From the NCBI GenBank assembly GCA_039630345.1, contig JBCNVD010000024.1:1-27285 (forward strand): DNA of 27,285 bases, in the 5' to 3' direction. This document shows positions 3,516 to 27,285 of this stretch, in pieces. Source of the stretch: Aquificaceae bacterium. GTDB taxonomy: Bacteria > Aquificota > Aquificia > Aquificales > Aquificaceae. Position 1 is the stretch's first letter, and each line of letters opens with the position of its first letter. Position numbers and translations under genes: made by a program. The notes beneath the pieces are model-generated. The model was given only the letters and a program-made list of their open reading frames with translations, was not told where the DNA came from and did not search any database.

Positions 3516-3530
3516 AAGTTTTATTTTAAA

Positions 3531-3621
3531 CGGAGAGGGCGGGATTCGAACCCGCGGTAGGGCTTTGACACCCTACTACTGCTTAGCAAGCAGCCGCCTT
3601 CGACCACTCGGCCACCTCTCC
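3531..3621 (-). tRNA. tRNA-Ser(GCT), long variable arm, CCA not encoded
   Basis: GGAGAGGTGGCCGAGTGGTCGAAGGCG GCTGC-TTGCTAA-GCAGT ... GGGTTCGAATCCC GCCCTCTCC G; acceptor stem, T-loop, variable arm and G discriminator all present. Confidence 0.96.
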
Positions 3622-3645
3622 AGCTATGTTTAACTAGTTTAAACC

Positions 3646-9906: not shown

Positions 9907-9948
9907 ATTTTAGAAGATTCTAATTAGTAATTGTTAAGAATCCGTTAA
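9907..9948 (-). promoter_or_regulatory. candidate Pho-box direct repeats and -10 element for pstS
   Basis: Minus strand TTAACG-N5-TTAACA-N5-TAATTA (11-bp period, 9948-9921) then TAAAAT (9912-9907) before the pstS RBS. Confidence 0.45.
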
Positions 9949-10894
9949 CAGTTTCTATAACAGCTGATGCTTTGGGAAGTTTCTTTGCATGCACTTTTAA
10001 AGTTGCTGCCTTACGCGAAAGCTCCAGTAAATTCGCTTTTCCAATAACGGCTACAATTGACGCCTTTGCTATAGGAAATTTGGCTGGCTTACCATTTCTA
10101 TCCAGCGATTCAAAATAACCTCTTTGCACATCTTCCGGTCTATAAAGCTCCGCAAGTGCCCTGGTTAACTTTACAAGAATCTCAGATGTAAGGAGTTTTA
10201 TCTCCTCGAAGGAAGTATTTGAAACTATTATAACAAAATCATCTCCACCAACATGTCCTACAAAAATCCTTTCCTGTGCTCTGGAAGCTATCATATTCAG
10301 AGTAAAACCAACTTTCTTTATCATATTGTCACCACATAAAAATCCATATGCGTCATTGTAGGCTTTAAAGTTATCAATATCTACATAGATTACATAAAAA
10401 CTTTCAGAAGACAGCTGAGTTATTTTTTCTTCTATAGCTCTGTTTCCGGGCAAAAAAGTAAGGGGGTTTCTGTCAAGAAACTCCCTGGCGAGCTTTTTTA
10501 TAAAAAAGTTCATGAGCCTGTTTCTCTCAACCAACCCCCACTCCTGTCCCTCTTTTGTTAAAAAGACTTCATTATCTGAGGATAGAAGACTGAGAATATA
10601 TTCACTTTCTATAGATATATAGTCAGGAATAGAAACCTCATTAGCGTCTTTAAAACAAATTTTGAAAGTTTCTATTAATTCTAAAAGTTTCAGATCTTGC
10701 CTATAACCATAGTCAATGTTATGCTTCAAGCACCAAACATCAACCAGAAAATTGCTTTTGTTGGTTTTTAATATCAGGAATCTTTCCTGAGAAGATAAAA
10801 TCTGCCCCAGAGCATGAGATGCCAGGGCACTTTCTGGAATAATGAGAGACTGAAGGCGCTGAGGTCTTATTACATCCTTCAGGGATTTTTTTTT
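9920..10894 (-). CDS. GGDEF-domain (GGDDF variant) C-terminal half of a frameshifted EAL-linker-GGDEF protein
   Basis: RNPLTFLPGN, DIDNFKAYNDAYG, HVGGDDF; frame stays open from 9920 up to 10921, past the ORF-track TTG at 10729 and across the A9 run. Confidence 0.85.
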   Translation of the reverse strand, partial: KKKSLKDVIRPQRLQSLIIPESALASHALGQILSSQERFLILKTNKSNFLVDVWCLKHNIDYGYRQDLKLLELIETFKICFKDANEVSIPDYISIESEYILSLLSSDNEVFLTKEGQEWGLVERNRLMNFFIKKLAREFLDRNPLTFLPGNRAIEEKITQLSSESFYVIYVDIDNFKAYNDAYGFLCGDNMIKKVGFTLNMIASRAQERIFVGHVGGDDFVIIVSNTSFEEIKLLTSEILVKLTRALAELYRPEDVQRGYFESLDRNGKPAKFPIAKASIVAVIGKANLLELSRKAATLKVHAKKLPKASAVIETVNGFLTITN

Positions 10895-11664
10895 GAGGTG
10901 CGAAAAGACGGGACATAACTGCTAACTGAAGATGCCTCCATAGGTTTTCCTACAATATAACCCTGTATTAGAGTCGCCCCAAGATCCCAAACAAGAACAT
11001 CTAAATCTTCCTCTACTTCAACTCCCTCAAAGATAAGCTTTGCTCCTATATTAGAAACTATATCCAGGAGCATACTTGTTAGTTTTCTTCTTATGTCGCT
11101 TTTTGATATACCATTGACGAGCTCTGTGGGTAATTTAACAAAATCCACAAGGTTCTCTAACTCTGCAAGATGGTATAGAGAGTTATAACCTATCCCTACA
11201 TCATCAATGCCAACCATAAAGCCAACGCTTTTATAATGCTCAAGGGTTTTTTTGATTATGTTTATATCCTGTACTTTACCCGCATCTGTTATTTCAAGAA
11301 CAAGATTTTGTTTTTTAAAGTTTAACTCAGTAACTATTTTTTCTGTCATACGCTTGCCAAATTCTTCTGTGAGTATGTAAAGAGGACTTACATTTACAAA
11401 TAGCTTTGTCTCTCTCAAAGGAAAGTTCTCTATGGCTGTTTTTCTGCATTTAAGGTCAAGCTCCCCCACAAGACCAAAAGAAGAGGCCATCTGGAAGATT
11501 TTATTAGGGGGGGTTGGCATATCCTCGAGCTTGAACCTGCTTAGCGCTTCAAAACCAAAAACGGTTCTTCTCTGAACATCAACTATGGGCTGGTAGTAGG
11601 GGGTAATCTCAAGCTTTTGAAAAAACTCATTTTTAACATTTGCCCTTATGTTATCTTTCCACAT
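10879..11664 (-). CDS. EAL-domain c-di-GMP phosphodiesterase (N-terminal half of the frameshifted gene)
   Basis: YQPIVD, FEALSR, LFVNVS, LEIT, IDDVGIGYNSL, VKL, EGVE, QGY; ATG 11664 preceded by AGAGG. Confidence 0.9.
   Translation of the reverse strand: MWKDNIRANVKNEFFQKLEITPYYQPIVDVQRRTVFGFEALSRFKLEDMPTPPNKIFQMASSFGLVGELDLKCRKTAIENFPLRETKLFVNVSPLYILTEEFGKRMTEKIVTELNFKKQNLVLEITDAGKVQDINIIKKTLEHYKSVGFMVGIDDVGIGYNSLYHLAELENLVDFVKLPTELVNGISKSDIRRKLTSMLLDIVSNIGAKLIFEGVEVEEDLDVLVWDLGATLIQGYIVGKPMEASSVSSYVPSFRTSKKNP
10886..10894 (-). repeat. A9 homopolymer at the EAL/GGDEF frame junction
   Basis: T9 on the plus strand; lies in the 40-nt window where both frames are open. Confidence 0.9.
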
Positions 11665-12889
11665 TTTTGAGCCTCTTTTGTAAGTATACATTAGCTCTGG
11701 ATCTAACAACAGCATATCTGTGCTGAGCCATTATACGCAAAAGTCTAACCGCTTCGTGTGAGGTCATTCTGGATAGAGTATCCACTATTTCCATCAGCAC
11801 TATCGGGTCGCTCTCCTTTGCAATCATAACTTCCAAGTGAGGCAGTGCAGCTTCAAGGTTTTTCTTACCCACCGTGCTTATTACATTAATTTTCATCTCT
11901 TTAACAGGATGTTCAAGTCCCATGATCAACTTATATTCGTATGGTAGATTATGAAACTCAGTGAGGTCATATTTGCATTGCGGGCACTCTTTATCCTCTG
12001 CTGATATAACGCTCCAGCAGGCAGGGCAAAAATATAGAATTGGATTGTCAGGGTCATAAGTCACTACTTTAATCTGACTATCTTCCTCTGTAAGAGCAGA
12101 TATATCAAAGGGAGTGTGCTCTAGTGACAACAACGGCGCAACATAAAACTCGTAAAAAGGCGCCTCTTCAAAACCCTCATTGAAAATTTCCTCGCCACCT
12201 TGCCAAAGCGAGTAACCATACTTTTCAGGGCTTACGCTCACAACAAGCAAATTACCCTTGACATTTTTAGCTATTTCTGGAGAAAACTCAGATAAAACCC
12301 CTGCAAATTCTATTTCTGAAAGCAAGAATGCAATGAGCTCTTCCGGAAGCTCATATATGCGAAGGTTGCAAACATCGTGCATCATGTCATCTATAACAGA
12401 CTTCATTGCAGGTTCGCCTGTAAGACCCGTGTAGTTTGCACTAACGACCATTCCATGCTGCAAAAGAAGATAGCCTTTCTGGAGCTTAACCCTGTTTTCT
12501 ATAAGCACGAAGCCAGTTGTTTCAAAATCTACAAGCTTGTTAAAAAACTCCCTGACATTAAAGCTGATGCTATCTAGATTTATCCAGAGAGGTTTTTCAC
12601 TGTACAGAGGTATCCTGTGGTGTTCGTATAGCTCGAAGGTGTTTATGATGAAATTTTCTAAAGTGCCATAAAAACTCAAGACCTCAAAATCCTGAGGGAG
12701 GTTCGCAAATCTGCCATCAAGAGAGTGTATAAACTCTATAGAATCTGCTGATTGGAGCATGAAATATCCAGTGCGCTGAGAGCTCTTTATCGTCTCTGTT
12801 ATCCACCCTAGATTCAGCATCTCTCTATGGAAAGGACCATACAGAGGTTTTAACTTAAGACTATACTCGCTTAAGATTATGTTTCGCAT
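11651..12889 (-). CDS. DUF4388/PATAN-like + zinc-ribbon + HEAT-repeat protein
   Basis: TTGFVLIEN..GYLLLQHGMVVSA..LTGEPAM (DUF4388-like); CPACW-x9-CPQC; C-terminal HEAT-like helical repeats. Confidence 0.7.
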   Translation of the reverse strand: MRNIILSEYSLKLKPLYGPFHREMLNLGWITETIKSSQRTGYFMLQSADSIEFIHSLDGRFANLPQDFEVLSFYGTLENFIINTFELYEHHRIPLYSEKPLWINLDSISFNVREFFNKLVDFETTGFVLIENRVKLQKGYLLLQHGMVVSANYTGLTGEPAMKSVIDDMMHDVCNLRIYELPEELIAFLLSEIEFAGVLSEFSPEIAKNVKGNLLVVSVSPEKYGYSLWQGGEEIFNEGFEEAPFYEFYVAPLLSLEHTPFDISALTEEDSQIKVVTYDPDNPILYFCPACWSVISAEDKECPQCKYDLTEFHNLPYEYKLIMGLEHPVKEMKINVISTVGKKNLEAALPHLEVMIAKESDPIVLMEIVDTLSRMTSHEAVRLLRIMAQHRYAVVRSRANVYLQKRLKNVER

Positions 12890-13397
12890 TTATAGCCTCC
12901 TTTAGTATTGCTTTGAAAGTCTCGGCAACCCCAAGACCCTGAGAGGCTACGGCTTCTATTATTGTTTTGTTAGGAAATGCCTTTCTGATTAAATCTATGG
13001 GGAGGATACTTTCTTTATCACGCTTATTTGCCTGGATTATTACGGGGGTATCTGAGATATTGTATTCGGATAGCTCTTGGTAGGCTTTTAAGTTCTCCAT
13101 TATATGTCTTGTGGAATCAAGCACAAAGACAAGCCCGTCTATTCCACCAAATAACCAAGAGCGGAGCATTTTAAAACGCTCCTGACCCGGGGTTGTAAAA
13201 AGATGAACTGTCAGAGATTGATTGCCTACCTTTGTTTTTATGTTGAGATTTAGCATATCAAGATAAACGGTTCTGCCCTCTTTTGTTTGCTGATGAACCC
13301 TGTCGACCGTGTAAGAAGAGTAGATCTCTTTGAGCTTTTCTAAATTTGTCGTTTTTCCCGCCATCCCAAGCCCGTGATATAGAATTCTTATATTCAT
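12861..13397 (-). CDS. mglA: MglA-family small Ras-like GTPase
   Basis: G1 GLGMAGKTT, GRTVYLD (intrinsic Arg), G3 TTPGQ, G4 NKRD, G5 EAVA. Confidence 0.9.
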   Translation of the reverse strand: MNIRILYHGLGMAGKTTNLEKLKEIYSSYTVDRVHQQTKEGRTVYLDMLNLNIKTKVGNQSLTVHLFTTPGQERFKMLRSWLFGGIDGLVFVLDSTRHIMENLKAYQELSEYNISDTPVIIQANKRDKESILPIDLIRKAFPNKTIIEAVASQGLGVAETFKAILKEAINAKHNLKRV

Positions 13398-13411
13398 AGC
13401 AAAATATTACC

Positions 13412-13861
13412 TCATATGGCTAAATCTTCAAATCTAACAACCTGCGTCTCCCCTCTTGCAACAGCTTTATCAAGAATTTGCACGAGCTCTCTGCTGACTC
13501 TCTCTTTCATTAGCTTTACAGTTCCCAGGGGGACTTTTTGAGAAAAGACAGAGGTAAACATAAAGCGATTGTTAATCATATGAACATACATGTTTTTTTC
13601 TGCCCCTGAGAAAAACATGCTGCGCTTGGAAGAGATTATATTTTCAAGCTGGTCGACAGCTCCCACAACTGCAGCGCCTATTATTGCAACTCTATAAGCA
13701 AGAGGTTTAAATTTGTCGTTATATGGAGCAAAAGATATCAACCTACCACCTTCGTCCATCAAAACTGCCATATCAAGGAGCAAAGAAGACTGAAACTGGG
13801 AAACCTTTTGATTTATCATCTTGATCTCTTCTTCGCTTAAGGTGTAGCCTATAACATCCAT
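13412..13861 (-). CDS. mglB: MglB-like roadblock/LC7 protein (putative GAP)
   Basis: EEEIKMIN...AVLMDEGGRLIS...VPLGTVKL resembles MglB; directly upstream of mglA; AGGAGG RBS. Confidence 0.8.
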   Translation of the reverse strand: MDVIGYTLSEEEIKMINQKVSQFQSSLLLDMAVLMDEGGRLISFAPYNDKFKPLAYRVAIIGAAVVGAVDQLENIISSKRSMFFSGAEKNMYVHMINNRFMFTSVFSQKVPLGTVKLMKERVSRELVQILDKAVARGETQVVRFEDLAI

Positions 13862-13985
13862 GATAAATGCCTCCTAACATATAATTAAAGCCTCCTCCTC
13901 TCTCCCCATTGAATCTGCGTATTTTGTTTTTAAAACAGAGTATCACCACAACTAAATTTATGCTTTTTGTGTTAAGTTTTTGTTA

Positions 13986-15485
13986 ATGGATGAAGAAATT
14001 TTTACAAAAGGAATAAGGCATACCGCACACGGACTTAACTTTTATATGAGTCTTTTTGATGAAGTGGCAAGAGTTTTGCCAAGAGAAGAGCTTTGCTTTA
14101 TAGTAGGTGGATGGGTAAGAGATAGAGTGCTGGGAGAGCCAGTTGGAGAAAAGATAGATATAGACCTGCTTACAACATACGATCCAATAAAGCTAGCAAG
14201 AGCTCTGGCAGAGAGGATAGGGGGTGCTTTTTTTGAGTTTGAGAAAAGAAAGCTATTTTGGCGATCCAGAGTTGGGGTTGTTGTTTTAAAACAAAAACCA
14301 TATACATACAGGTTTGACATTGCGCAAATAAGAGGCAATGACATAGAAAAAGCTCTGATTCAGGACCTTCTTTCGAGAGATTTCAGCGCGAACGCGATGG
14401 CGATAAATATGGACCATGTTTTGAGTCTTGGGGCAAGGCAGACATTTATATATGACCCCTGCCACGGCATGGAAGACCTTGAGATGGGGATTTTAAAACC
14501 AGTGTCTTTATCAAACATAGAGGAAGACCCAATCAGAATCCTGAGAGGATTCAGGATAGCTCATCAGAGAAAATTAGAATTAACCGAGGATTTTTTAGAT
14601 TTTGTGAGAAGAAAAAGCAACATCATAAAAAAATCTCCACCAGAGCGAATAACTCAAGAGCTCTTAAGGATATTTTCTGCGGAAAATTCCTGGAGAGTAA
14701 TCAAAGACCTATATGAAATAGGTATACTCAAAGAGATATTTCCAGAGACCGCAAGATGGGAAGAGGTAAAAGACAAATCCCAAGAAGCACCTTTGAGCGA
14801 GCATATTTTTAAAGTCATAAAAGAGCTGGAAGAAATTATAAAAAGAAAGAACCAGCTCTTGCCAGATGGGATTGAAATAGAGAGAGAGTTTCTTGGAGAG
14901 TTTTCTCAAATAGAACTTACAAAATTGGCTGCTCTTTTGCATGATATTGCAAAGCCCCATACTTACAAAGTGATTGATGGAAAGTCGACATTTTATGGAC
15001 ATGATGTTTTGGGAGAACAAATGGTAAGAAACTATGCAAAAGTTTATAAATGGGGCAAAGATGTAGAGGATTTTGTTGCAAAAATGGTCAGACACCATCT
15101 GAGGCTTTTTTTCTTAAGAGAGGCAAAACTAAAAAACGAACTGACTGACAGGGCAAAATACAGGTTCTGGAGAGATTGTGAGGATATAGCTCCTTATTTA
15201 TTTTTGCACTCTCTTGCAGACTCTATAGCAAGCGATGATAGTGAAACTCAAATACAGGCGCTGATTGAGTTATTTAAAGAGCTATGGGAATTTAAGCTCA
15301 AAATGGGTCAGTTGCCGAGCGCTCTTTTAAGCGGTGATGAGATTATGGATATTTTAAAAATAGAGCAGGGACCAGAGGTTGGAAAGCTAAAGCAGGCACT
15401 TATCGAAGCCCAGATTGAGGGGAAGGTAAAGACTAAAGAAGAAGCTATTGAGTTTTTAAAACAGATAAAATACCGCGATGGATAA
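13986..15485 (+). CDS. tRNA nucleotidyltransferase with HD domain, probably CC-adding type
   Basis: VGGWVRD, DID, RFD-(short loop)-DLLSRDFSANA, EDPIRILRGFR, LLHDIAKP; strongly resembles the Aquifex CC-adding enzyme as I recall it. Confidence 0.88.
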   Translation: MDEEIFTKGIRHTAHGLNFYMSLFDEVARVLPREELCFIVGGWVRDRVLGEPVGEKIDIDLLTTYDPIKLARALAERIGGAFFEFEKRKLFWRSRVGVVVLKQKPYTYRFDIAQIRGNDIEKALIQDLLSRDFSANAMAINMDHVLSLGARQTFIYDPCHGMEDLEMGILKPVSLSNIEEDPIRILRGFRIAHQRKLELTEDFLDFVRRKSNIIKKSPPERITQELLRIFSAENSWRVIKDLYEIGILKEIFPETARWEEVKDKSQEAPLSEHIFKVIKELEEIIKRKNQLLPDGIEIEREFLGEFSQIELTKLAALLHDIAKPHTYKVIDGKSTFYGHDVLGEQMVRNYAKVYKWGKDVEDFVAKMVRHHLRLFFLREAKLKNELTDRAKYRFWRDCEDIAPYLFLHSLADSIASDDSETQIQALIELFKELWEFKLKMGQLPSALLSGDEIMDILKIEQGPEVGKLKQALIEAQIEGKVKTKEEAIEFLKQIKYRDG

Positions 15486-16101: not shown

Positions 16102-16975
16102 AAACTTCAGCCCCTTTGTCTGAAGGTTTAAGGATTAAATACCTGGCCTTTATGTTCTCTTGTTCAAAAGCCTCTATCATTGCCTTTGCTATCTCTTCGG
16201 GTTTTGAGAGAGAAAGAGCCATAATGGTAGGACCTGAACCACTTAAGAAAACACCCAATGAACCTGCGCCGAAGGCGCGCTCCAGAATTTTATAAAATCC
16301 GGGCACGAGGGGAGCTCTGTAGGGTTGATGGAGCATGTCTTTGGTGGCTTCTTTAAGAAGGTCGAAGTTTCTGGTTAGTAAAGAGGATATAAGGAGAGAG
16401 GAGCGCTGGATGTTAAAGACTGCGTCTTTTAGGGGAATAGATGTAGGAAGAACCTTGCGGGCTTTTTCTGTCTTTATTTCAAACTCCGGTATGCAGGCGA
16501 TAAAGTAGAGCTCCTGAGGTGGGTCCAGCCTGTGATATACACTATCGCCTGCGCAAACGACCATTCCGCCAAGGAGAGACGGCAAGACATTATCAGGATG
16601 AGGCTCCAACTTAAGGGCTATCTGGAGGGCTTTTTTAATATCAAGGGGCTCTCTGAGCTGGTGGAAGGCGACCACTATACCCGCCACTATTGCGCTTGCT
16701 GAAGAGCCAAGTCCGCGTGAGATTGGGATGTTGTTTTGTAAATACCATGTCATGGGTCTGGGTTCTATGCCTAAGCTTTCACAGGCAAGCAGGTAGGATT
16801 TTATAACCAGATTTTGAGTGTCCTTTGGCAAATCCTCACCATAGCCCTGGATTTTTACGCTAAGGCTTTCAGAGGGCAGGACCTTAATAGTGTTTTTTAA
16901 ATTCAGAGCTATGCCAAGCGAGTCAAAGCAAGGGCCAAGGTTACTGGTGCTTGCTGGGACTTTAATCAGAAACAT
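16082..16975 (-). CDS. thrB: homoserine kinase
   Basis: VPASTSNLGPCFDSLG, IPISRGLGSSASA, EPHPDN, LHQPYR, LSGSGPT. Confidence 0.96.
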   Translation of the reverse strand: MFLIKVPASTSNLGPCFDSLGIALNLKNTIKVLPSESLSVKIQGYGEDLPKDTQNLVIKSYLLACESLGIEPRPMTWYLQNNIPISRGLGSSASAIVAGIVVAFHQLREPLDIKKALQIALKLEPHPDNVLPSLLGGMVVCAGDSVYHRLDPPQELYFIACIPEFEIKTEKARKVLPTSIPLKDAVFNIQRSSLLISSLLTRNFDLLKEATKDMLHQPYRAPLVPGFYKILERAFGAGSLGVFLSGSGPTIMALSLSKPEEIAKAMIEAFEQENIKARYLILKPSDKGAEVFENPDT

Positions 16976-16989
16976 TGTAAAATATATTA

Positions 16990-17346
16990 ATGGTTAAAAG
17001 CTCTTACAATCTAGGTGGGGGCAGGTGGAGACTGAGTTTTTATAACTCTATAGAGAGAGAACACTTCGAGAGGACTTTAAAAAACAGCAATTTATTTGAT
17101 GTTCTGGAATCAGGCAATACTAGCTTGCTGGTGAAGGTCAGGTCAACAGAGATTGAGCAAATATTAAATGCTTCGAGAAATCAGTTAGTAGATAGGGCAG
17201 ATATTCATTTTTATCTAAGTTTTTTTATAAAGCATCCTTTTGTTAAAGCTGTTTTTAGCATAAGTATGCTTGGCTTTTGGGCGGGGTTGATCAGTTTTGG
17301 GGTATGTAGTATGATATTTATGCCCTATATCAGAAGTAGATTCTAA
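16990..17346 (+). CDS. hypothetical membrane protein, Cys-less HMA-like N-terminus (GRWRL) plus C-terminal hydrophobic GxxxG segment (FezC-like)
   Basis: GGGRWRLSF...TSLLVKV; GFWAG in a hydrophobic tail; first gene of the ATPase operon. Confidence 0.6.
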   Translation: MVKSSYNLGGGRWRLSFYNSIEREHFERTLKNSNLFDVLESGNTSLLVKVRSTEIEQILNASRNQLVDRADIHFYLSFFIKHPFVKAVFSISMLGFWAGLISFGVCSMIFMPYIRSRF

Positions 17347-17356
17347 GGAGGTTTAA

Positions 17357-17677
17357 ATGTTTGGTTTGCAAATACCTTCTACCATCGGCGGATGTATACA
17401 GACCAGCTTCCTGGGTTATGGCTTTGGGGCTTTGGTTGGCTTTGTGCTAATTAGCAAGCTCATAAAAGACTCGAGACCTCTGTGGGTTGCCTCTGCGAAA
17501 GAAATAATATCATTTCAACAATGGCTGAACGCAAATGTTGAAGAGGGAAAAGAGTTTTGGGAAGATGTCATCTCAGAGGCAAAAAACCTCTACAAGATGG
17601 AGATAGAGAAAAAACTCGAGATTTTGCAAAAACAGCAAGAAATACTTGAGAGACTAAAGTCCAACATAGGAGGTTAA
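17357..17677 (+). CDS. small GxxxG membrane protein, DUF5132/FezA-like
   Basis: AAGGAGG RBS; GYGFGALVG TM, then RPL...EEGKEFWEDVISEAK and a coiled-coil tail. Confidence 0.7.
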   Translation: MFGLQIPSTIGGCIQTSFLGYGFGALVGFVLISKLIKDSRPLWVASAKEIISFQQWLNANVEEGKEFWEDVISEAKNLYKMEIEKKLEILQKQQEILERLKSNIGG

Positions 17678-17679
17678 AA

Positions 17680-17859
17680 ATGACCAGCTTACTCTCCAGA
17701 TTCTTGTGTTCTGGCCCTTTTGGTTTTGCTCTTGGGTTTGGGATAGGAATTGTGGCTCTTTACCTGCTTGATAAATCAAGGGAAAAGGGCAAAATCCAGA
17801 AAACTCAGCAGGAAATAGAGCAAATGGTAAAAGCCCTGGAATCTAAAAATACTGGATGA
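17680..17859 (+). CDS. 59-aa glycine-zipper membrane protein (absent from the ORF track)
   Basis: AGGAGG RBS; MTSLLSRFLCSGPFGFALGFGIGIVALYLLDKSREKGKIQKTQQEIEQMVKALESKNTG*; ATGA overlap with the ATPase start. Confidence 0.85.
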   Translation: MTSLLSRFLCSGPFGFALGFGIGIVALYLLDKSREKGKIQKTQQEIEQMVKALESKNTG

Positions 17860-19925
17860 CGAAATTCAGGATTGAGAGATTTCTCCCAAGGAGCGTCAAG
17901 CTCCACTCTTACATATTTGAGCATCTTCAATATCCTGAAGAAACCATAAAGGAGCATTTTTCTCGCTTTGGCGGTATAAGAGAGCTTAAATACTACCCTC
18001 ATGGCGGAAAGGTCAGAATCGAATTCGAAGAAGGCTTTGACCTCACAGGATTTTTAAACTACATCCAGGAAACATCAAGAGAGCTCCTCCTTATTGAGCT
18101 ATCAAAGCTAAAGCTCCCAAAAAGAGAGAGGCAAAATAGCCTTAAAGAGCTTCTCCTAGTGAGTGCTGGTTTCTTGCCTTATTTATTCAGAAGTTTAGTG
18201 CCGGGAGCTTTGCTATCTGGAATCACTCTGCTTATGGCAAGCGGGGTTATTAAAAAGGCTATTTCCTCTCTAAAGCGTGGGGATCTGGATGTTCATGTGC
18301 TTGACACAACAGCGATAGTAGCATCCTGCCTTGGTGGGTCACCTCTATCTGCACAGGTGATGGTATTTTTACTAAGTTTAGGAGACTACCTTTCTTCTAT
18401 AGTAGAGAGCAGAGCTTACGAGAAGATTGAGAAGCTATTTTCATACCGCGAAGATATGGCATGGAAAATTACACAGGATGGACAGATCATAAGAGTAAAG
18501 GCTCTTGAATTATCAAGAGGGGAACTAATAGCAGTCTACGCAGGTGAAAAGATTCCAGTGGACGGGGTAGTAAATGATGGAGATGCACTTGTAAATCAGG
18601 CTTCTCTAACAGGAGAGTCTAATCCGGTTCACAAAAAGTTAGGCGATAAGGTATACGCAGGCACATTTGTCGAGGATGGAAAGCTTTATATAAGAGTTGA
18701 AGAAGTAGGGGAAGACACTGTTGTAGCAAAAATAGCCAGAATAGTAGAGGAGAGCATAAGAGAACCAATTAATTTACAGCAAAAAGCTCATGAATTTGCA
18801 AACAGGTTTGTAATTCCCACCATAGGTCTTGGACTGGGTGCCTGGGCTTTATCCGGAAGCGCTTCCAGATTGTCATCTACTTTGATAATAGACTTTCATA
18901 CAGGCGTTTATTTAACAACTCCCCTGACTGTTTTATCAGGAATTGCAAAAGCGTCCGAGCTTGGAATTTTAATCAAAAGTGGCTCAAAATTGGAAGCACT
19001 TTCGAGAGTTGACACTTTTGTGATGGATAAGACCGGAACTTTAACCGTTGGTAACCCGGTTATAGAAGATATTCTCGGTCTTGAAATAAGCGAAGAAGAA
19101 GTACTTCAATATAGCGCATCGCTTGAGCAAAGAATAACCCATCCTGTTGCAAGGGCTATACTGAAACTTGCAGAGTCCCGCTGTATAGAGCTTTTCCAGA
19201 GAGAAAACTCACAATATCATATAGGACTTGGTATAGAAGCAAACATAAATGGGACAAAATTTATGCTAGGAAGTACCAGATTTATGAATAAAAAGAATAT
19301 CAAAATATCACATGAGACAAGAAAACTGGTAGATAAACTTCATGCTGAGGCAAAATCTGTTTTATATCTTGTCAGAGAAAAGAAAATAGTCGGTCTTTTG
19401 AGTTTTAAAGATCCACTTCGCGAAGAAGCAAAAGATATTGTGATGGAGCTAAAAAAGCGAGGAAAGGAAGTTATACTCTGTACTGGCGACAACGAAGGTA
19501 TAGCAAGTTATATATCAAAGCAGCTTGGGTTAAGTAAATTTTACGCAAGAGTTTTCCCTGCTGAAAAGGCAAAGATAGTAAGTGAATTAAAGTCAAGGGG
19601 AAGAGTAGTCGCTTTTGTAGGGGATGGAGTAAACGACTCTCCTGCTCTTTCGTGTTCTGATGTTGGTATATCGTTAAAGAGCGGAACAGACATAGCAATA
19701 GATGTTGCGGATGTTGTTATTGGAGATAGTTTATGGCAGCTTGTTGATGTGCTAGATATAGCAACTAACACTATAAACAAACTCAAAAAGGCATACTTTG
19801 TAAATACCTTGGTAAATGCCATAGGGCTAACAGGTGCAGTAAGCGGGATTTTTGGACCGTCTATATCTACATTTTTAAATAATGGGGCGACAATAGCCCT
19901 TGGTATTTATTCAACAAGGAGGTAA
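17856..19925 (+). CDS. heavy-metal P1B-type ATPase, atypical (P1B-6/FezB-like)
   Basis: LTGES, DKTGT, HP, TGDN, GDGVND; DFHTG in place of CPC; NNGAT in the last TM; degenerate Cys-less HMA-like N-terminus. Confidence 0.92.
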   Translation: MTKFRIERFLPRSVKLHSYIFEHLQYPEETIKEHFSRFGGIRELKYYPHGGKVRIEFEEGFDLTGFLNYIQETSRELLLIELSKLKLPKRERQNSLKELLLVSAGFLPYLFRSLVPGALLSGITLLMASGVIKKAISSLKRGDLDVHVLDTTAIVASCLGGSPLSAQVMVFLLSLGDYLSSIVESRAYEKIEKLFSYREDMAWKITQDGQIIRVKALELSRGELIAVYAGEKIPVDGVVNDGDALVNQASLTGESNPVHKKLGDKVYAGTFVEDGKLYIRVEEVGEDTVVAKIARIVEESIREPINLQQKAHEFANRFVIPTIGLGLGAWALSGSASRLSSTLIIDFHTGVYLTTPLTVLSGIAKASELGILIKSGSKLEALSRVDTFVMDKTGTLTVGNPVIEDILGLEISEEEVLQYSASLEQRITHPVARAILKLAESRCIELFQRENSQYHIGLGIEANINGTKFMLGSTRFMNKKNIKISHETRKLVDKLHAEAKSVLYLVREKKIVGLLSFKDPLREEAKDIVMELKKRGKEVILCTGDNEGIASYISKQLGLSKFYARVFPAEKAKIVSELKSRGRVVAFVGDGVNDSPALSCSDVGISLKSGTDIAIDVADVVIGDSLWQLVDVLDIATNTINKLKKAYFVNTLVNAIGLTGAVSGIFGPSISTFLNNGATIALGIYSTRR

Positions 19926-19928
19926 GAT

Positions 19929-20192
19929 ATGGAAGAAAAAGACCTATCTCAAGAGCTCGAGAAGATTAAACAGGAGTTAGAAGAGCTTAAGAAGAAGCTA
20001 TCTGAAACAGAAGGCAGGAGCATAAAAGACCTTCCAGCAGAAACCTTATCAAAGATAGCAGATGTTGGTAAAGACATAGTAAAAGCAGCAACTGATATAG
20101 GAGAAAAGGCACTCAGGGTAGTAAAATCCTCTATTGAAGGCGCGGTTGAAGGTGCAAAAAGAGCTATCAAAGATGAAAACAAGCAGGAATGA
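19929..20192 (+). CDS. small coiled-coil/amphipathic-helix protein
   Basis: AAGGAGG RBS in the ATPase 3' end; heptad-like N-terminus and amphipathic C-terminal helix; ATGA overlap with the next gene. Confidence 0.75.
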   Translation: MEEKDLSQELEKIKQELEELKKKLSETEGRSIKDLPAETLSKIADVGKDIVKAATDIGEKALRVVKSSIEGAVEGAKRAIKDENKQE

Positions 20193-20446
20193 TTCTTCTG
20201 AAAACCAGAAGCGGAAGGTTTCTAAACGCAGCGCATGTTATAAGTCTATCTATAGAAGAAGCCAAAATTGAAATAGATGGTAGAAAAAGGAATGTTTTCA
20301 AGATAGTAGCTTACTTAACCCAGCCACTATTACCCGCCGTAATAGGTATTTATGCAACAGAAGAGAAAGCTAAAGAGGTTTTAAATTCTGTGGCAATGAG
20401 GCTTAGTCAGGATGAGCGCATCATCGCAACAGAAAGCGAATTCTGA
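20189..20446 (+). CDS. hypothetical protein
   Basis: Translationally coupled (ATGA); globular-looking composition. Confidence 0.65.
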   Translation: MILLKTRSGRFLNAAHVISLSIEEAKIEIDGRKRNVFKIVAYLTQPLLPAVIGIYATEEKAKEVLNSVAMRLSQDERIIATESEF

Positions 20447-20765
20447 AGATTTAATCAGGAATTTAAGGCAAATAGCAACAAATATACAGCAAAAGCATTC
20501 AGCTACTTTAAGTAAGATAAAGTATCCATTGCTTTTTGAGATAAAACTTCCAGATGGCGAAAGGGTATTTTTTCTAATTTCACAGAATACTATAAAACAG
20601 GTAGAGCAAGATAATAGCTCTGTAGACCGGGTAGAAATTTCATACAAAGACCTTATTAGGCTTTTGGAAAAGCCGTCAAGGGCTCCAAGATACGCATTTC
20701 AGGGCAGGTTAAAGATTAAGGGAGATTTCGGTAAGATTATGTCGACTCTAAAGAGTCTGCTTTAG
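20412..20765 (+). CDS. SCP2 sterol-carrier/lipid-binding domain protein
   Basis: C-terminal ISYKDLIRLL...AFQGRLKIKGD is the SCP2 signature. Confidence 0.7.
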   Translation: MSASSQQKANSEDLIRNLRQIATNIQQKHSATLSKIKYPLLFEIKLPDGERVFFLISQNTIKQVEQDNSSVDRVEISYKDLIRLLEKPSRAPRYAFQGRLKIKGDFGKIMSTLKSLL

Positions 20766-21004: not shown

Positions 21005-22111
21005 TTAAGCTCTGGCGAGGGCATTTGAATAGAGGCTTACAAGGTTCTTAAAAGTTTGATCCCAGGAGAAATGATGCCTTATATAATTGCTTATCGACAT
21101 CCTAAGCTCTTGCGATAGGGCGTTTTTCGCCCTCCAGATAGCCTCAAGAAAGGCACTCTCAGATAGGTCTTTTGCCAGAAATTGCTTAAAGGGCTGGGTC
21201 TCTAATCCCATATCCAGCGAGACCAAAACGCAGCCACAGGATTGAGCTTCCAGAAAGGAAAGTCCATAAGTTTCAAGAGGCGAAGCGCTTACAAAGATAT
21301 CACAGCTTGCGTAGATCCTGGCAAGGTCTAAATTGGATCCTACATATTCCAGATAGGTAAGGTTAGGGAGCTTTTTAGAAGCTCTCAATACCCAACTTCG
21401 TAAAGGACCATCACCGACAATCACAAGATGAAAGAGCTTTTTATCAAGTTGTTTAAAGAACTTCAAAAGCGTCAAAAGACCCTTTTCCACAGAAAGCCTT
21501 CCAACATATAAAAGGAGCGCCTTATCTTCTGGTATGTGAATATTTTTGCGAAAATCGGGGTCTTTTTGAAAAGGATTGAAAATGCTTGAGTCAACGCCGA
21601 GGTTTACAGTATATACCCTTTCAAGACCATAGCTTTTTAAAAACTCTTCCTGCTTTTTAGATGGGGTTAAAACAAGGTCCGCCTTTGAAAGTTTTTTAAT
21701 CCAGTTAAAGAGGAGAGCTTTTTTTATCTTTTTTGGAACTGGCAAAAGCGAAAGCTCTGTTCTCAAATCAGCATGGTAGAAAACCGAGAGCAGGTAGTTA
21801 TTAGAAACAAGAGAATCTATTCTCTGGTAGCTACCACCAAGTTCCAGTATTTCAGGGGATTCTCTCCGGAGAATAGATTTTACTTCTGAAAGGGTGTGAA
21901 ACATTCTATAACCGCCACTGAGGGGCAGAGGAATTGACCTGACTGTATAGATAGTGGTATTACCCTCTTTGGTCTCTGAATAGGTGCTACCGGGCACTAT
22001 CAGGATATGGCTAATATCAGTCGAAGACAAAAACCTTGACTTTTCAAAAAGATACCTTCTTACGCCGCCGCTCTTTTTATGGTAATAAGGTGTTACATCA
22101 GCGAGCTTCAT
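21005..22111 (-). CDS. GT4-family glycosyltransferase
   Basis: KSGGVRRY, LLYVGRLSVEKG, IVGDGP, ETYGLSFLEAQSCG; ATG 22111 after GGGAG. Confidence 0.92.
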   Translation of the reverse strand: MKLADVTPYYHKKSGGVRRYLFEKSRFLSSTDISHILIVPGSTYSETKEGNTTIYTVRSIPLPLSGGYRMFHTLSEVKSILRRESPEILELGGSYQRIDSLVSNNYLLSVFYHADLRTELSLLPVPKKIKKALLFNWIKKLSKADLVLTPSKKQEEFLKSYGLERVYTVNLGVDSSIFNPFQKDPDFRKNIHIPEDKALLLYVGRLSVEKGLLTLLKFFKQLDKKLFHLVIVGDGPLRSWVLRASKKLPNLTYLEYVGSNLDLARIYASCDIFVSASPLETYGLSFLEAQSCGCVLVSLDMGLETQPFKQFLAKDLSESAFLEAIWRAKNALSQELRMSISNYIRHHFSWDQTFKNLVSLYSNALARA

Positions 22112-24341
22112 AAACAAGTCTCCCAACACCTGCTATTGTATAAAGATAATCAATATATGTCCTGCGAAGGTCCATTGACTGAGCAAAGTAGAGCGCTTCT
22201 TTTGACATAACTTCCCTGAGGTCTTCTTTAGACAGAAGGAGCTCTAACTTCGAGACATATTCTTCCAGTGAATGTGCAACAAAACCATTAACACCCTGCT
22301 CGATATGTTCATGAGAAGCGCCTTTTGAGCTAACTATCGGTGGCAAGCCACTTGCCATAGCCTCTAAAACTACCTGCCCGTAAGTTTCTGTCTCTGAAGG
22401 GAACAGAAACACATCAGAACTTGCATAAGCCCTCGATAGCTCCTCACCGGTCATAAAGCCAGTAAAGTAAACATTTTGAGGGCTTTTTAACTGAGCTTGA
22501 GAACGGTAAGGTCCATCACCTACTATTACGAAGGCTACGCTATTGAGTCTTTTTGCAACTTCAAGGACAGTGTCTATACCCTTTTCCTGAGATACTCTGC
22601 CCACAAAGAGAACTACCCTTGTATTTGGGTTAATACCCAGCTTCTTACTCCAGAAGCCTTCAACACGCTTTGACGGATTAAAAAGTTCTGTGTCTACACC
22701 TCTTTTAAAGACACTCATTTTGGCATAATCAAGACCCTTACGAGATAGCAATACCCTGTAGTGCTCTGATGGAACAAAAAACCTATCTGAATTATTCCCA
22801 AGAAACACAAAAGCTTTCCACAGGAGCTCTTCGAGCTTCTGGTCTCTTGTGTAGGTTTTTGCATATGCCGGTATATCGGTATGGAATGCACTTGTTATTC
22901 TAAGTCCCAGGAGCTTGCCTGCTATAAAACCAAGAATACCAAGAGGTCCCTGGGTTGCTAGATGAACCTGGGTGAAGTTGTTATTGCTTAGCATATGCAT
23001 AAGCTCAACAAGACTGGGAACACCCATCCTTAGCTCTTCATAAAACGGGGTGGGAATTTCGATAATTGGTTTTAAGTTTATTATGCCTTCTTCTTCTACT
23101 TCGGAATTACAAACGACTACTTTGAAAGGTAAATCTTCCTCGAGTGCTATTTTTTTGACTATTTTTGCACTCCTTGCAACGCCGTTTATGTGATGGTAAG
23201 TGTCTGTAAGATAAGCAACGAGTCTTGGTTTTGAAACATTAAGTCCAAAGTCTTTTGCCAGTTCCTGAATTTTTCTCTCTTCTCTTTTCTGAGCATACAG
23301 CAAAATAGCAGGACTTAAGTGTGCAATAATTGATAAAATAAACTCTCCAAGCTTTTGTGGAGAGGGGGAACTTATCAGTCTGTTAATGGCTACAGAGGGG
23401 ATTACATTGCAAATTTCCCAGAGAAGATTTTCTCTGGATGGGTTTATATCAAAAAAGCTCTTTATTAGCATTCCCATCATGGGATTGTCAGAATGCATAA
23501 AGATATAGTCAGTAAAGGGCTTTAACTCACTTGGGATTTTGCCCTTTTTGCGATAGTGGTCGTATCCTACCCTGAAAATCATATTAAGAAGTCTTGCTTC
23601 TGAAAGTTCTTTGGTGCCGACCCTCGAACGACCCTCTAAAAGACCCTTGAGATATTCTTCTTTTGTCTTTGCACTCTCAACTAAAGTCCAGGTTAGACCA
23701 ATATCCATACCACCATGGTCGTCAGAGCCTGCGGTAAAGGCGATTTTATCCCTATTTCTTTGAGGCTCTATTTTGTGCTTTTCTGCAATGGCGTTTATGT
23801 TGTCCCAGCCATCATAAAGTCTTGCAATGGACTCTTCAAGGTTTAAAACACCATCACCTCTGGTGCCGTTAATTAGCTCCCAGTTATCAAATAGCAAAAC
23901 CATACGCTCGATAAACTGGCGGTTGATGTCTGTTTTCTGGACAGAGAAGAAAGGATGTGCAAGACTATGCGCGATAGCGCGCTTTTTGAGATACTTTACA
24001 AAATCATAGACATTTTCCCGAAGGCGCAAAAGCTCCTCGTGGTCCGCTTCGCTTAAACCATAAACAAGAACGTGAATCTTTGACTTTATGTCAGGGACGC
24101 TGACGGTGTATTCACAGCTGATAAATACATCCTTGTTATGAGCTATCTCGAGAACCCCAGAAATAGTGTTGTGGTCAGTTATGGTAACAAAAGACATACC
24201 TCGCTCTTTCAGGCGTTTGTATATCTCTTTGGGCTCTGTATAGCTCTCAGGGCAATTTATGAGTTTGCTAAACCACCCCCCCGGAAGGTTAGAGGCTTTG
24301 GAATGAAGATGCAGGTCTGCTCTTGCCAAAAACTCTGCCAT
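22098..24341 (-). CDS. PHP-domain/GT4 glycosyltransferase fusion
   Basis: PHP motifs DLHLHS, ITDHN, AHPF, GSDDH; GT4 motifs TDTY..INGVA, FVGRVSQEKG, ETYGQVVLEAMASG. Confidence 0.92.
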   Translation of the reverse strand: MAEFLARADLHLHSKASNLPGGWFSKLINCPESYTEPKEIYKRLKERGMSFVTITDHNTISGVLEIAHNKDVFISCEYTVSVPDIKSKIHVLVYGLSEADHEELLRLRENVYDFVKYLKKRAIAHSLAHPFFSVQKTDINRQFIERMVLLFDNWELINGTRGDGVLNLEESIARLYDGWDNINAIAEKHKIEPQRNRDKIAFTAGSDDHGGMDIGLTWTLVESAKTKEEYLKGLLEGRSRVGTKELSEARLLNMIFRVGYDHYRKKGKIPSELKPFTDYIFMHSDNPMMGMLIKSFFDINPSRENLLWEICNVIPSVAINRLISSPSPQKLGEFILSIIAHLSPAILLYAQKREERKIQELAKDFGLNVSKPRLVAYLTDTYHHINGVARSAKIVKKIALEEDLPFKVVVCNSEVEEEGIINLKPIIEIPTPFYEELRMGVPSLVELMHMLSNNNFTQVHLATQGPLGILGFIAGKLLGLRITSAFHTDIPAYAKTYTRDQKLEELLWKAFVFLGNNSDRFFVPSEHYRVLLSRKGLDYAKMSVFKRGVDTELFNPSKRVEGFWSKKLGINPNTRVVLFVGRVSQEKGIDTVLEVAKRLNSVAFVIVGDGPYRSQAQLKSPQNVYFTGFMTGEELSRAYASSDVFLFPSETETYGQVVLEAMASGLPPIVSSKGASHEHIEQGVNGFVAHSLEEYVSKLELLLSKEDLREVMSKEALYFAQSMDLRRTYIDYLYTIAGVGRLVYEAR

Positions 24342-25005
24342 AGGTTGTAAACCTCCTTTGATTTTTTGTGTCTCTTATTAGATTGCGCCAAAGGCTGACC
24401 TTTTCAGGGTCTTGAAAGTCGCGAAGATGAATAGCCAGTCTAATAATCTCAGCCCTTTTTAAAATTTTATAAAAAATGCCAAGACCTAGCTTGCTTATTT
24501 TAGAAAGCCAGCTTCTATTGCTCAAACTAAGGGCTGGGGAGAAAATATCTTTATTTGAACATAAGTCTCTAAGAATCCATCTATAACCAACTGCGTGAAA
24601 GCCAAGGACTTTTAAAACCCCGTCAAGGTAAGGATTACCTATCCAGGCAGGCGCGACAAAAAACCTGTCGCAAAACCCAAGCTCTCTAAAAATAGAGAGA
24701 CCTTCTTTTATACGCTTGTAGGTTTCTAAAAGCTCAAGAGAGGCAAATTCTCCCTCTCCGTCGGTCCATAGAAAGTTTTTTATTCCCGCATTACCAAGAT
24801 GGGTATACCCATGAAGCACTGCATGCTCGGCACTTATTAGCTTAACTCCGCTCCAGGACTCAAGCGGGTGATTGCCCCACATGTTTGGAACCACAAGGAG
24901 ATTAAACTCCTCTACCCCCTCAGAGGATATTAAATCAAGACACGATAAAAACTCTTTTTCAAACTTTGGGCTTACATCATGGACTTCCAGTATAGCCCAT
25001 GGCAT
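24289..25005 (-). CDS. DUF2334-type polysaccharide-deacetylase-like protein
   Basis: EVHDVSP, VLHGYTH, EGEF, FVAPAW, RLAIH. Confidence 0.85.
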   Translation of the reverse strand: MPWAILEVHDVSPKFEKEFLSCLDLISSEGVEEFNLLVVPNMWGNHPLESWSGVKLISAEHAVLHGYTHLGNAGIKNFLWTDGEGEFASLELLETYKRIKEGLSIFRELGFCDRFFVAPAWIGNPYLDGVLKVLGFHAVGYRWILRDLCSNKDIFSPALSLSNRSWLSKISKLGLGIFYKILKRAEIIRLAIHLRDFQDPEKVSLWRNLIRDTKNQRRFTTYGRVFGKSRPASSFQSL

Positions 25006-25070: not shown

Positions 25071-26504
<1,434 letters not shown>

Positions 26505-26515
26505 TTAGATCTTCA

Positions 26516-26588
26516 AGGCGCGTAGCTCAGTCGGCAGAGCGCTGGCCCGACACGCCGGAGGTCGGCGGTTCAAGTCCGCCCGCGCCTA
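26516..26588 (+). tRNA. tRNA-Val(GAC), CCA not encoded
   Basis: AGGCGCG/CGCGCCT acceptor stem, TAGCTCAG D-arm, CTGGC-CCGACAC-GCCGG anticodon arm, GGCGG-TTCAAGT-CCGCC T-arm, A discriminator. Confidence 0.95.
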
Positions 26589-26596
26589 TTTTAAGG

Positions 26597-27285
26597 ATGA
26601 AAGTAGGATACTGCACAGTAGCAGGTAGACCCAATGTAGGAAAGTCAACTCTCGTTAATAGCCTCATAGGGACTAAAGTTTCTATAGTTTCTCAAAAGCC
26701 AGGCACTACCAGAATGAGAATCCTTGGTATAAAGACCATAAAAGACATTGCCCAGATAGTGTTTCTGGATACTCCCGGGATAGCAAAAGCCTCTGACGCT
26801 CTCTCTCAGGCCATGCTCCAGAGCGCTAAGGCTTCTTTGGAAGAAGCTGATGTGGTGATGTTTGTCATTGACGCATCTGAAGGCTGGCAATTGGCTGACG
26901 AGCTAATCTTTAGCAGGTACATAAAACCCCTTAAAAAGCCGGTTTTGATGGTTTTAAATAAAATTGACCTCCTTGGCAAAGTAGATAGGACTCTCCCTAT
27001 AGTTGAGGAAATTAGCAAAAAGGTTGGAGATTCTTACGAATTTATACCCGTTAGCGCCTCAAAAGGCTTTAATCTGGATAAACTTACAGACTTAATCATA
27101 AAACATCTAAAAGAAGGTCAGATGCTATTTGAGCCTGATATGGCTACTGACTTGCCACTTAGGATAATCTCAGCAGAAATCATAAGAGAAAAGGTTTTGC
27201 AAAAAGTCTATCAAGAAGTGCCTCAGGGCGTTGCGGTAATAGTTGAAAACATCTCACAGGGTAAATTAGACAAAGAGATGCTGGT
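26597..27285 (+). CDS. era: GTPase Era, partial (runs off the right edge)
   Basis: Manual translation: MKVGYCTVAGRPNVGKSTLVNSLIGTKVSIVSQKPGTTR..FLDTPG..NKID..EIIREK; not in the ORF track. Confidence 0.95.
   Translation, partial: MKVGYCTVAGRPNVGKSTLVNSLIGTKVSIVSQKPGTTRMRILGIKTIKDIAQIVFLDTPGIAKASDALSQAMLQSAKASLEEADVVMFVIDASEGWQLADELIFSRYIKPLKKPVLMVLNKIDLLGKVDRTLPIVEEISKKVGDSYEFIPVSASKGFNLDKLTDLIIKHLKEGQMLFEPDMATDLPLRIISAEIIREKVLQKVYQEVPQGVAVIVENISQGKLDKEML

Follow-up and report, generated by a model that had tools for sequence, protein, structure and literature searches.

A ferrosome-related gene module of Aquificota with a FezB-sister ATPase and, in most relatives, a predicted phosphate-starvation box

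Does a compact gene cluster that joins a CPC-less P1B-type ATPase to small glycine-zipper membrane proteins have to be an iron store? The question is raised by a 27,285-nt stretch of DNA (hereafter the window) from an Aquificaceae bacterium (GCA_039630345.1, contig JBCNVD010000024.1; genome label G000; assembly of 1.16 Mb, 96% complete), in which a first-pass annotation had read seven tightly coupled genes as a divergent ferrosome (fez) cluster. To our knowledge, the ferrosome is the one lipid-bounded iron store of bacteria that has been defined genetically. All seven co-oriented open reading frames (ORFs) were found across 16990-20765 of the plus strand, with intergenic gaps of 10, 2, -4, 3, -4 and -35 bp; they encode g1 (118 aa), g2 (106), g3 (59), the ATPase (689), g5 (87), g6 (85) and g7 (117). 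The ATPase is not FezB but belongs to a sister clade of FezB, apart from the Cu/Zn exporters, and the module is a conserved eight-gene unit, since the earlier gene list had overlooked a convergent gene, g8 (Table 1).

The pump was correctly described as a CPC-less P1B ATPase: it passes TIGR01525 (464.6 bits against a cut-off of 346.25), its catalytic motifs TGES, DKTGT, HP, TGD and GDGVND are intact, and no CPC, CPH or related Cys-Pro motif is present in its transmembrane helix 4 (TM4). It clears TIGR01512 as well (331.8 against 313.5) and fails TIGR01511; because TIGR01512 is passed without a Cys-Pro motif, automatic names mislead here. FezB has been defined by D[Y/F]SCA in TM4 and HNxxT in TM6 (bioRxiv 10.1101/2020.01.10.902569). 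The window pump reads DFHTG and NNGAT and satisfies neither motif; NNG is found in TM6 of all 18 clade members aligned, and D[YF]SCA in none of the 98 best ATPase matches (P0001-P0098, one of which lacks DKTGT and was not read). The alignment columns for D150, D346, N654 and N676 are common to the window pump and FezB, whereas the TM4 Cys and TM6 His of FezB are not shared. This TM6 His is retained in the iron-context clades (FezB and the DFVTG pumps discussed below) and missing from the window's clade. At the N-terminus the window pump reads PRSVKL, without the RxR that several close orthologues have as GRIRL or GRLRL.

Phylogeny places the pump accordingly. In a 90-row tree (IQ-TREE quick mode, LG+G4, Shimodaira-Hasegawa-like approximate likelihood ratio test (SH-aLRT) support; near-duplicates and the divergent rows L075, L079, L100 and L137 omitted), a DxxTG clade of 51 rows (support 98) is sister to 22 rows of D[YF]SCA pumps (99), with 100 for the joint node; CtpC-like pumps, a separate clade, are next out, and Cu/Zn pumps also lie outside. 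An 84-row tree that retains the four divergent rows gives the same split. Reference pumps came from a motif scan sampling 1/64 of a genome-contig collection, and the FezB rows were picked by motif, not as experimentally studied proteins; one of them, L069, is adjoined by a DUF2202 gene, as in fez clusters. Since both defining motifs fail and the pump sits in the sister clade, its identification as FezB does not hold, even though in both trees it groups with FezB and away from the CPC/CPH/CPG exporters. The nearest database proteins come from Aquificaceae, Hydrogenobacter, Thermocrinis, Sulfurihydrogenibium, Caldimicrobium and Thermodesulfobacteriota. An AlphaFold model (pLDDT, the predicted local distance difference test score, 82.8) matches CopA and ZntA best in the PDB; no solved FezB-type structure is among its 22 PDB sequence matches or the Foldseek matches listed. 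The pump is the single DKTG[TS] protein found in G000, where no second P-type ATPase was found. As separate observations, long-branch ATPases with unrecognised TM4 motifs (L075:102-2099, L100:6986-8551, L079:6521-8962) fall on the DxxTG side and may form a further subfamily, and five proteins of 1600-1700 aa (P0159, P0192, P0249, P0251, P0256) related to the DxxTG clade carry two DKTGT motifs, as tandem P-type ATPases, with degenerate TM4.

Two of the small membrane proteins, g1 and g2, are also distant, weakly matching relatives of fez-type partners. Pfam and NCBIfam scans give nothing above cut-off for g1, g2, g3, g5 or g6, and each of g1, g2 and g3 has one TM-like segment with GxxxG. The motifs that had marked g1 as HMA-like are there (GRWRL at residues 12-16, GxxxG at 95), but the similarity to HMA is seen on orthologues only, below cut-off: the window protein itself has no Pfam match, and four of five g1-type proteins scanned from related loci match PF19991 HMA_2 at E 6e-5 to 5e-3. 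Outside the phylum, a g1 profile has only weak top matches (E 0.1-0.9), among them HMA-type proteins from fez-type loci. The description of g2 and g3 as small GxxxG membrane proteins with coiled-coil tails was accurate, with GxxxGxxxG at residues 20-28 and 15-23, respectively, in the TM-like segment. When a g2 profile was run against 7,385 ORFs from outside, the ten best matches all lay in loci of FezB- or DxxTG-type pumps; the best (E 1e-4) is a DUF5132 protein, and those checked are DUF5132 or DUF6110 by Pfam or record annotation, save one without a match. Two g2 orthologues match DUF5132 below cut-off (E 0.0016 and 0.038). A g3 profile weakly resembles (E 0.2-0.4) small proteins upstream of FezB-type pumps. 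Both proteins have an invariant Cys just ahead of the TM helix (Cys13 in g2, Cys10 in g3); DUF1490 is not matched by g2, g3 or their orthologues, and the g2 and g3 tails contain no His. Because the ATPase groups with FezB, and g1 and g2 are distant kin of HMA_2 and of DUF5132/DUF6110, the sequence outcomes that the first-pass annotation had named as speaking against it, a pump among other P1B exporters and small proteins without Fez or DUF5132 similarity, were not those found.

The soluble proteins set the module further apart. The amphipathic helical protein of the earlier gene list is g5, which has the largest hydrophobic moment of the seven ORFs and no TM segment. In one database ATPase of the DxxTG clade (P0087) the g5 domain is fused C-terminally (residues 692-780, E 1e-31), a single case that could reflect a lost stop; g5 is thus likely, judging from this fusion, to bind the ATPase. 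The idea that g5 is a soluble copy of g2 was rejected for want of a profile match. The model of g6 (pLDDT 94.6) has a best VIA Z of 6.0, which is not significant, many PH-like matches and Atlas neighbours without names, and weakly suggests a PH-like fold. The SCP2 assignment of g7 stands above the gathering score of PF02036 (32.2 bits against 21.3, E 1.4e-7).

Throughout the phylum these genes travel together. Nearly all-or-none in its distribution, the module is present in 50 of 178 genomes, a count made up of 49 with an ATPase at E <= 1e-100 and G138, which has a contig-edge fragment of 53% identity. All 47 genomes with g2 are among these 50; g6 co-occurs with the ATPase in 40 of 41 genomes, g7 in 38 of 40 (the other two have broken or partial copies) and g8 in 36 of 39. 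Among the gene maps listed, the order is the same in orthologous loci while the flanks vary between genera, and because the order recurs with changing flanks the locus is more than chance. Fuller versions read g0-g1-g2-g3-ATPase-g5-CDF-g6-(g7) with g8 convergent (L046, L203, L204, L206); g7 is absent from L204 and L206, two metagenome loci (GC 0.43) that retain the gene order and tandem boxes. One genus (labelled g5, unrelated to the gene; eight genomes) has a divergent pump (DYNTN in six fetched loci), two HMA-like genes and a CDF, and g6, g7 and g8 were not found in its eight genomes. In the module CDF, the TM2 His seen in the comparison CDF is replaced by Phe or Tyr in 6/6 aligned copies, and that of TM5 by Phe or Arg in 4/6; since its first metal site is altered, its cargo may differ from the usual Zn-type cations. 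Apart from these patterns, G034 holds a decaying module (L042:6229-9244; frameshifted ATPase, truncated g1 and g6), relic g6/g7 or g7/g8 pieces persist in two pump-less genomes (G076:C8:14212-14656 and G130:C1:1199103-1199916), and a stand-alone CZB (chemoreceptor zinc-binding) gene lies directly upstream of g1 in L031 (4918-5283) and L065 (4845-5222), with its own box in L065.

If the module is fez-like, is it regulated by iron? Fur control was tested and rejected: across 34 upstream regions the best sites match 10-14 of 19 positions of the Fur consensus, and no feo gene was seen among the gene maps listed, in which not all neighbours are annotated. What the relatives have instead is a conserved direct repeat, TTAAC-N6-TTAAC, mostly ~40 bp before g1, with an 11-bp period and ~10 bp ahead of a -10-like hexamer. 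The reported cyanobacterial SphR/PhoB Pho box consists of CTTAACCT repeats with a 3-bp linker (PMC1906773). At 28 of 35 loci this literature consensus is matched (<=3 mismatches, <=120 bp of the first gene). By comparison, 89 of 1002 ORFs in G000 and 47 of the 311 longer ORFs in the same loci have such a match. With a position weight matrix (PWM) built on 17 distinct sites, 30 of 35 loci reach a score of >=15, a partly circular measure. The exact pattern occurs 35 times in four of five complete genomes, with three control matches. Among 24 exact sites read, those with named genes precede phoU (3), pstS (1), PhoX (1), Porin_O_P (a phosphate-selective porin; 1), the first gene of the module (3), g8 (2), the lipid deacetylase operon (2), dnaA (1), DUF302 (1) and a likely TonB receptor (1, by eye), and eight precede unnamed ORFs. 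The dnaA site lies immediately before the gene in L156 (G074:C1:9-24). In L167, L178, L204 and L206, g8 has a Pho-like box of its own upstream.

Evidence independent of the motif points the same way. The first gene of the fuller modules, g0, shows a PhoU-type fold, a match that the standard of the tool grades as a lead; L055 is located behind pstCAB-phoU-phoR-like genes; and the module of L203 is oriented divergently to a gene for a PhoB-like regulator, with PhoX nearby. A PsiE gene neighbours the module in L037. We predict that in most relatives the module is induced by phosphate starvation via PhoB. The supplement of the SphR/PhoB study lists predicted boxes before two P-type ATPase genes, CYA_2759 and syc0467_c (PMC1906773). 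Among the freely readable papers listed, we found no published account of this module or of Pho control of ferrosome-like genes; the supplementary tables of the ferrosome preprint may list these pumps. The proposal of a divergent fez cluster is thus partly right: the kinship of the ATPase, g1 and g2 stands, whereas the pump is not FezB, no Fur-like box was found, and the upstream sequences and neighbours of the relatives point to phosphate.

The copy in the window is an exception to this predicted regulation. Before its g1 there is no Pho box, with a best PWM score of -4.0 in 16700-16995, against 19.3 at pstS. The box is also missing before g1 in the same-genus locus L061 (PWM -6.3), and L037, which has the same neighbours as the window, has a Pho-like box in the thrB/g1 gap. 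Because pstS (an identity backed by TIGR02136) retains its box, the regulon motif is still used in G000: the pstS box and that of the roadblock/GTPase run are the joint top PWM matches of the genome, and the box of a PhoX gene scores 15.3. Only weak remnants occur at g8 (6.9) and the lipid operon, no box was found at phoU or the porin of G000, and neither g0 nor the CDF was found in this genome with the queries used. PhoB-, PhoR- and PhoU-like genes are present in G000, PhoB models being best matches but below cut-off. With no g1 box, weak remnants and neither the PhoU-like nor the CDF gene of the module, phosphate control of the window copy is unsupported. On the simplest reading, the window's lineage, with its small genome and shrunken regulon, lost PhoB control of the module; we infer box loss as the direction of change because the box is widespread in relatives. 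A box-less yet intact copy that encodes the only P-type ATPase found in its genome is what the window adds, and it serves as a natural control for the regulatory claim. Independently, two tandem PhoX genes lie at G000:C24:18766-22680, the first with a Pho-like box, and at 9920-13987 of the window's minus strand a run of roadblock-like, small GTPase, HEAT-repeat, EAL- and GGDEF-like genes stands between two Pho-like boxes and leads into pstSCAB (the GTPase and HEAT labels are domain matches, the others were assigned by eye). It is possible that this run links phosphate sensing to a polarity/cyclic di-GMP module.

The wider DxxTG clade extends these associations. A survey of 40 cyanobacterial regions yielded 45 DxxTG-type pumps, with operon starts set by a heuristic. 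In six of ten D[FL][AM]TG operons, a sense-strand Pho-like box with no more than one mismatch lies within 450 bp of the operon's first gene; of the remaining four, one carries a perfect box on the opposite strand and three lack a box. The background was 26 sites in 1.2 Mb of strands, and no such box was seen at 15 DFVTG pumps or 20 other pumps. Ten of the 15 DFVTG pumps are near feoA/feoB-like genes (regex labels), one with a ferritin, and the TM6 His is kept in 6/6 aligned. At L245:5382-14848, two DFGTG pumps flank cax (calcium/proton exchanger), DUF5132-like and CoBaHMA-GlyZip calcyanin-like genes; DUF5132 and CoBaHMA genes are reported to adjoin ccyA (10.1101/2024.07.07.602159; PMC8890360). 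The cyanobacterial paralogues thus occur in three contexts: feoAB/ferritin/DUF2202, a Pho box, and cax with a calcyanin-like gene. Because the clade recurs in iron, phosphate and calcium contexts, mineral bodies are favoured over plain export, by association only.

What, then, might the module do? We tentatively favour, at slightly less than an even chance, that it builds a ferrosome-like body of cation and phosphate whose ancestral trigger was phosphate starvation, and that it does so in bacteria most of which lack polyphosphate kinase (PPK). PhoB would induce the operon under phosphate shortage, much as Fur-released fez genes ready cells for iron resupply. The products of g2, g3 and g1 would oligomerise via their glycine zippers, gathering the pump into a patch of curved membrane or a vesicle, and the pump would move a divalent cation over an Asp/His/Thr/Asn site without Cys or Met. 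Candidate substrates are Fe2+, Mn2+, Ca2+ and Mg2+, which are indistinguishable here. Returning phosphate would then be banked as a cation-phosphate mineral, with the basic g8, the amphipathic g5 and the SCP2-fold g7 acting as putative surface and lipid-handling factors; in the window's lineage, expression of the module would not involve PhoB. The ferrosome mineral of C. difficile is reported to be ferrous phosphate (10.64898/2026.06.16.732667). In the window's family PPK1 was found in none of 90 genomes, in a second family in one of 50, and PPK2 in none of these, so such cells would be without the usual phosphate store.

Several facts weigh against a phosphate-banking body. Seven of the 35 loci miss the literature consensus and five score below 15 with the PWM; most Aquificota boxes have two repeats, not the three that Synechocystis PhoB is reported to require (PMC11126600). 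The window copy is without the g1 box and the PhoU-like and CDF genes, keeping only the weak g8 and lipid-operon remnants. Many of the genomes are incomplete and related ones do not count as independent cases, and the core has no clear phosphate importer for the body. Most module-less Aquificota are also without PPK, and G164, the only module genome of family f5, has both kinases; the lack of PPK is therefore permissive rather than complementary, and strict complementarity of module and PPK was rejected on this distribution. Finally, homologous small proteins with a related pump are reported to form plasma-membrane efflux platforms in mycobacteria (10.1101/2021.10.01.462712, PMC13460109, PMC13043812).

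This last point leads to a rival that we consider unlikely, though it has to be weighed: a PacL- or effluxosome-like platform in the cytoplasmic membrane, in which g2, g3 and g1 would stabilise and cluster an exporting pump that disposes of cations freed when phosphate ligands are scarce, or that supplies periplasmic phosphatases such as PhoX. A published description of DUF6110, to which g2 is kin, calls it PacL-like and places its genes together with those of P1B-6 pumps (10.1101/2021.10.01.462712); CtpC-like pumps form the next clade outward, and PhoB is reported to govern iron homeostasis in Synechocystis too (PMC11126600). The fuller operons contain a CDF, and the status of the pump as sole P-type ATPase found in G000 would suit housekeeping export. 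The pump, however, has no CPC or HN ligands and g2 and g3 no His-rich tail; the operon CDF lacks His residues as described above; PhoX occurs in only 27 of 50 module genomes; and several scaffold-type genes exceed the two-gene PacL/Ctp layout. That the module instead serves membrane remodelling under phosphate starvation, with the pump, the basic HMA-like domains, SCP2 and g6 handling lipids or feeding ions to lipid enzymes, seems to us improbable. The SCP2 gene lies within the operon, g6 has its weak PH-like fold, and boxed neighbours best match a GlcNAc-phosphatidylglycerol synthase/deacetylase and an OlsB-type acyltransferase, all below cut-off; yet the glycosyltransferase is present in 33 of 50 module genomes (missing from 17) and in 14 module-less ones, SCP2 is absent from the eight DYNTN-type genomes and from L204 and L206, and the pump keeps a polar ion-type site in common with FezB. 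With these counts for the lipid operon and PhoX, strict pairing of the module with either was rejected.

A true but divergent iron ferrosome, storing iron after iron starvation, is likewise very doubtful. The sister relationship to FezB, the FezA- and FezC-like neighbours, the feo-associated cyanobacterial subclade and a TM4 His that could bind Fe2+ argue for it, and in the window the missing Pho box leaves room for other control in a genome that has FeoB and two Fur-family genes. Both FezB motifs fail, however, the TM6 His of the iron-context clades is missing, the Fur consensus is poorly matched, relatives carry Pho-like boxes and a PhoU-like gene, and G000 already has a two-domain ferritin-family protein. 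Beyond the cation-phosphate body itself, we raise with real hesitation, as somewhat unlikely, the broader proposal that a membrane-bound phosphate-storage organelle under PhoB control, made by FezB-sister machinery, is common to PPK-less Aquificota, some uncultured lineages and many cyanobacteria. DxxTG pumps would then be a general mineral-body toolkit, rewired to signals of iron, phosphate or calcium, and the TM6 His would mark its iron versions.

Features of the window are collected in Table 1, with the CDF copies aligned from other loci. The convergent lipid operon beyond g8 is context outside the core; its best matches are a GlcNAc-phosphatidylglycerol synthase and a deacetylase, below cut-off, and it has a Pho-like box in relatives. 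Scans for sigma-70 promoters and terminators stayed at shuffle level (8 against 9.1 and 4 against 3.6). Spurious ORF translations at ~3520-3640 and 26460-26600 of the window resemble tRNA genes read in frame.

Table 1. Coordinates of module genes, motifs, boxes and context (window positions unless a locus is given)
Feature	Position	Strand	PWM score
g1: Cys-less HMA_2/CoBaHMA-like N-domain with RxR (GRWRL) and C-terminal GxxxG membrane helix; FezC-like layout	16990..17346	+	
g2: glycine-zipper protein with one TM segment and an acidic, amphipathic, coiled-coil tail; kin of DUF5132/DUF6110 (FezA/PacL-like)	17357..17677	+	
g3: 59-aa glycine-zipper protein, single TM, coiled-coil tail	17680..17859	+	
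g4: P1B-type ATPase, DxxTG clade	17856..19925	+	
TM4 motif D346-F-H-T-G350 of ATPase	18891..18905	+	
TM6 motif N675-N-G-A-T679 of ATPase	19878..19892	+	
g5: amphipathic helical soluble protein	19929..20192	+	
g6: beta-rich small soluble protein, no known family	20189..20446	+	
g7: protein with SCP2 lipid-binding fold	20412..20765	+	
g8: convergent 70-aa protein, basic ERxRxRE patch and amphipathic C-terminal helix	20762..20974	-	
14-bp gap between divergent thrB and g1; Pho-like box absent	16976..16989	n/a	
Pho-like box ahead of pstS	9931..9949	-	19.3
Pho-like box ahead of roadblock-like/small GTPase/HEAT/EAL/GGDEF run preceding pstSCAB	13969..13987	-	19.3
Glycosyltransferase / PHP-glycosyltransferase / deacetylase operon, convergent; context, outside core	21005..25005	-	
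CDF copies aligned	L046:8828-9673, L203:8163-9017, L204:10099-10926, L206:8088-8915, L050:8499-9359, L054:5336-6187		

The module is a relative of ferrosomes whose ion site differs and which, in most genomes, is preceded by a predicted box for phosphate starvation; cultured genera also possess it. If the body is built, it would mean phosphate banking without polyphosphate kinase in a deep-branching thermophilic phylum, and a single pump clade would connect inclusions of iron, phosphate and calcium. The discoverers of ferrosomes suggested that related P1B pumps might work alike, and reported a fez operon to be functional in E. coli (10.1101/2020.01.10.902569).

Set beside known systems, the module is, by its sequences, like a fez cluster in layout and ancestry while its pump falls outside FezB. 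It shares with fez clusters a CPC-less P1B pump with the residues D150, D346, N654 and N676, small GxxxG membrane proteins, a compact operon and, weakly, an HMA-like protein (g1) with RxR, without Cys and with a membrane tail; it differs in DFHTG/NNGAT against D[YF]SCA/HNxxT, in the additional g5, g6, SCP2 and g8 genes, and in the Pho-like box and PhoU-like gene of its relatives where fez clusters have a Fur/feo context. PacL/Ctp effluxosomes (DUF1490 with CtpC, CtpG and CtpV, as reported in 10.1101/2021.10.01.462712, PMC13043812 and PMC13460109) resemble it in a single-TM scaffold with an acidic helical tail adjoining a related P1B pump, and in the DUF6110 kinship of g2; unlike them, the module has a pump without CPC in TM4 or HN in TM6, lacks a His-rich metal motif, runs to eight genes where they have pairs and, in relatives, carries a phosphate-type box. 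Cyanobacterial loci that combine DUF5132, HMA_2/CoBaHMA and DxxTG genes have the same pump clade and the same kinds of partner, but the pumps share only ~30% identity, those of cyanobacteria are uncharacterised, and the window module has no calcyanin-like or cax gene. The box of the relatives, in turn, is like the cyanobacterial Pho box in its TTAAC repeats, its 11-bp period and its positions before pstS, phoU and phoX, and unlike it in having mostly two repeats rather than three, in its absence at the window module, and in being, in Aquificota, a predicted PhoB site.

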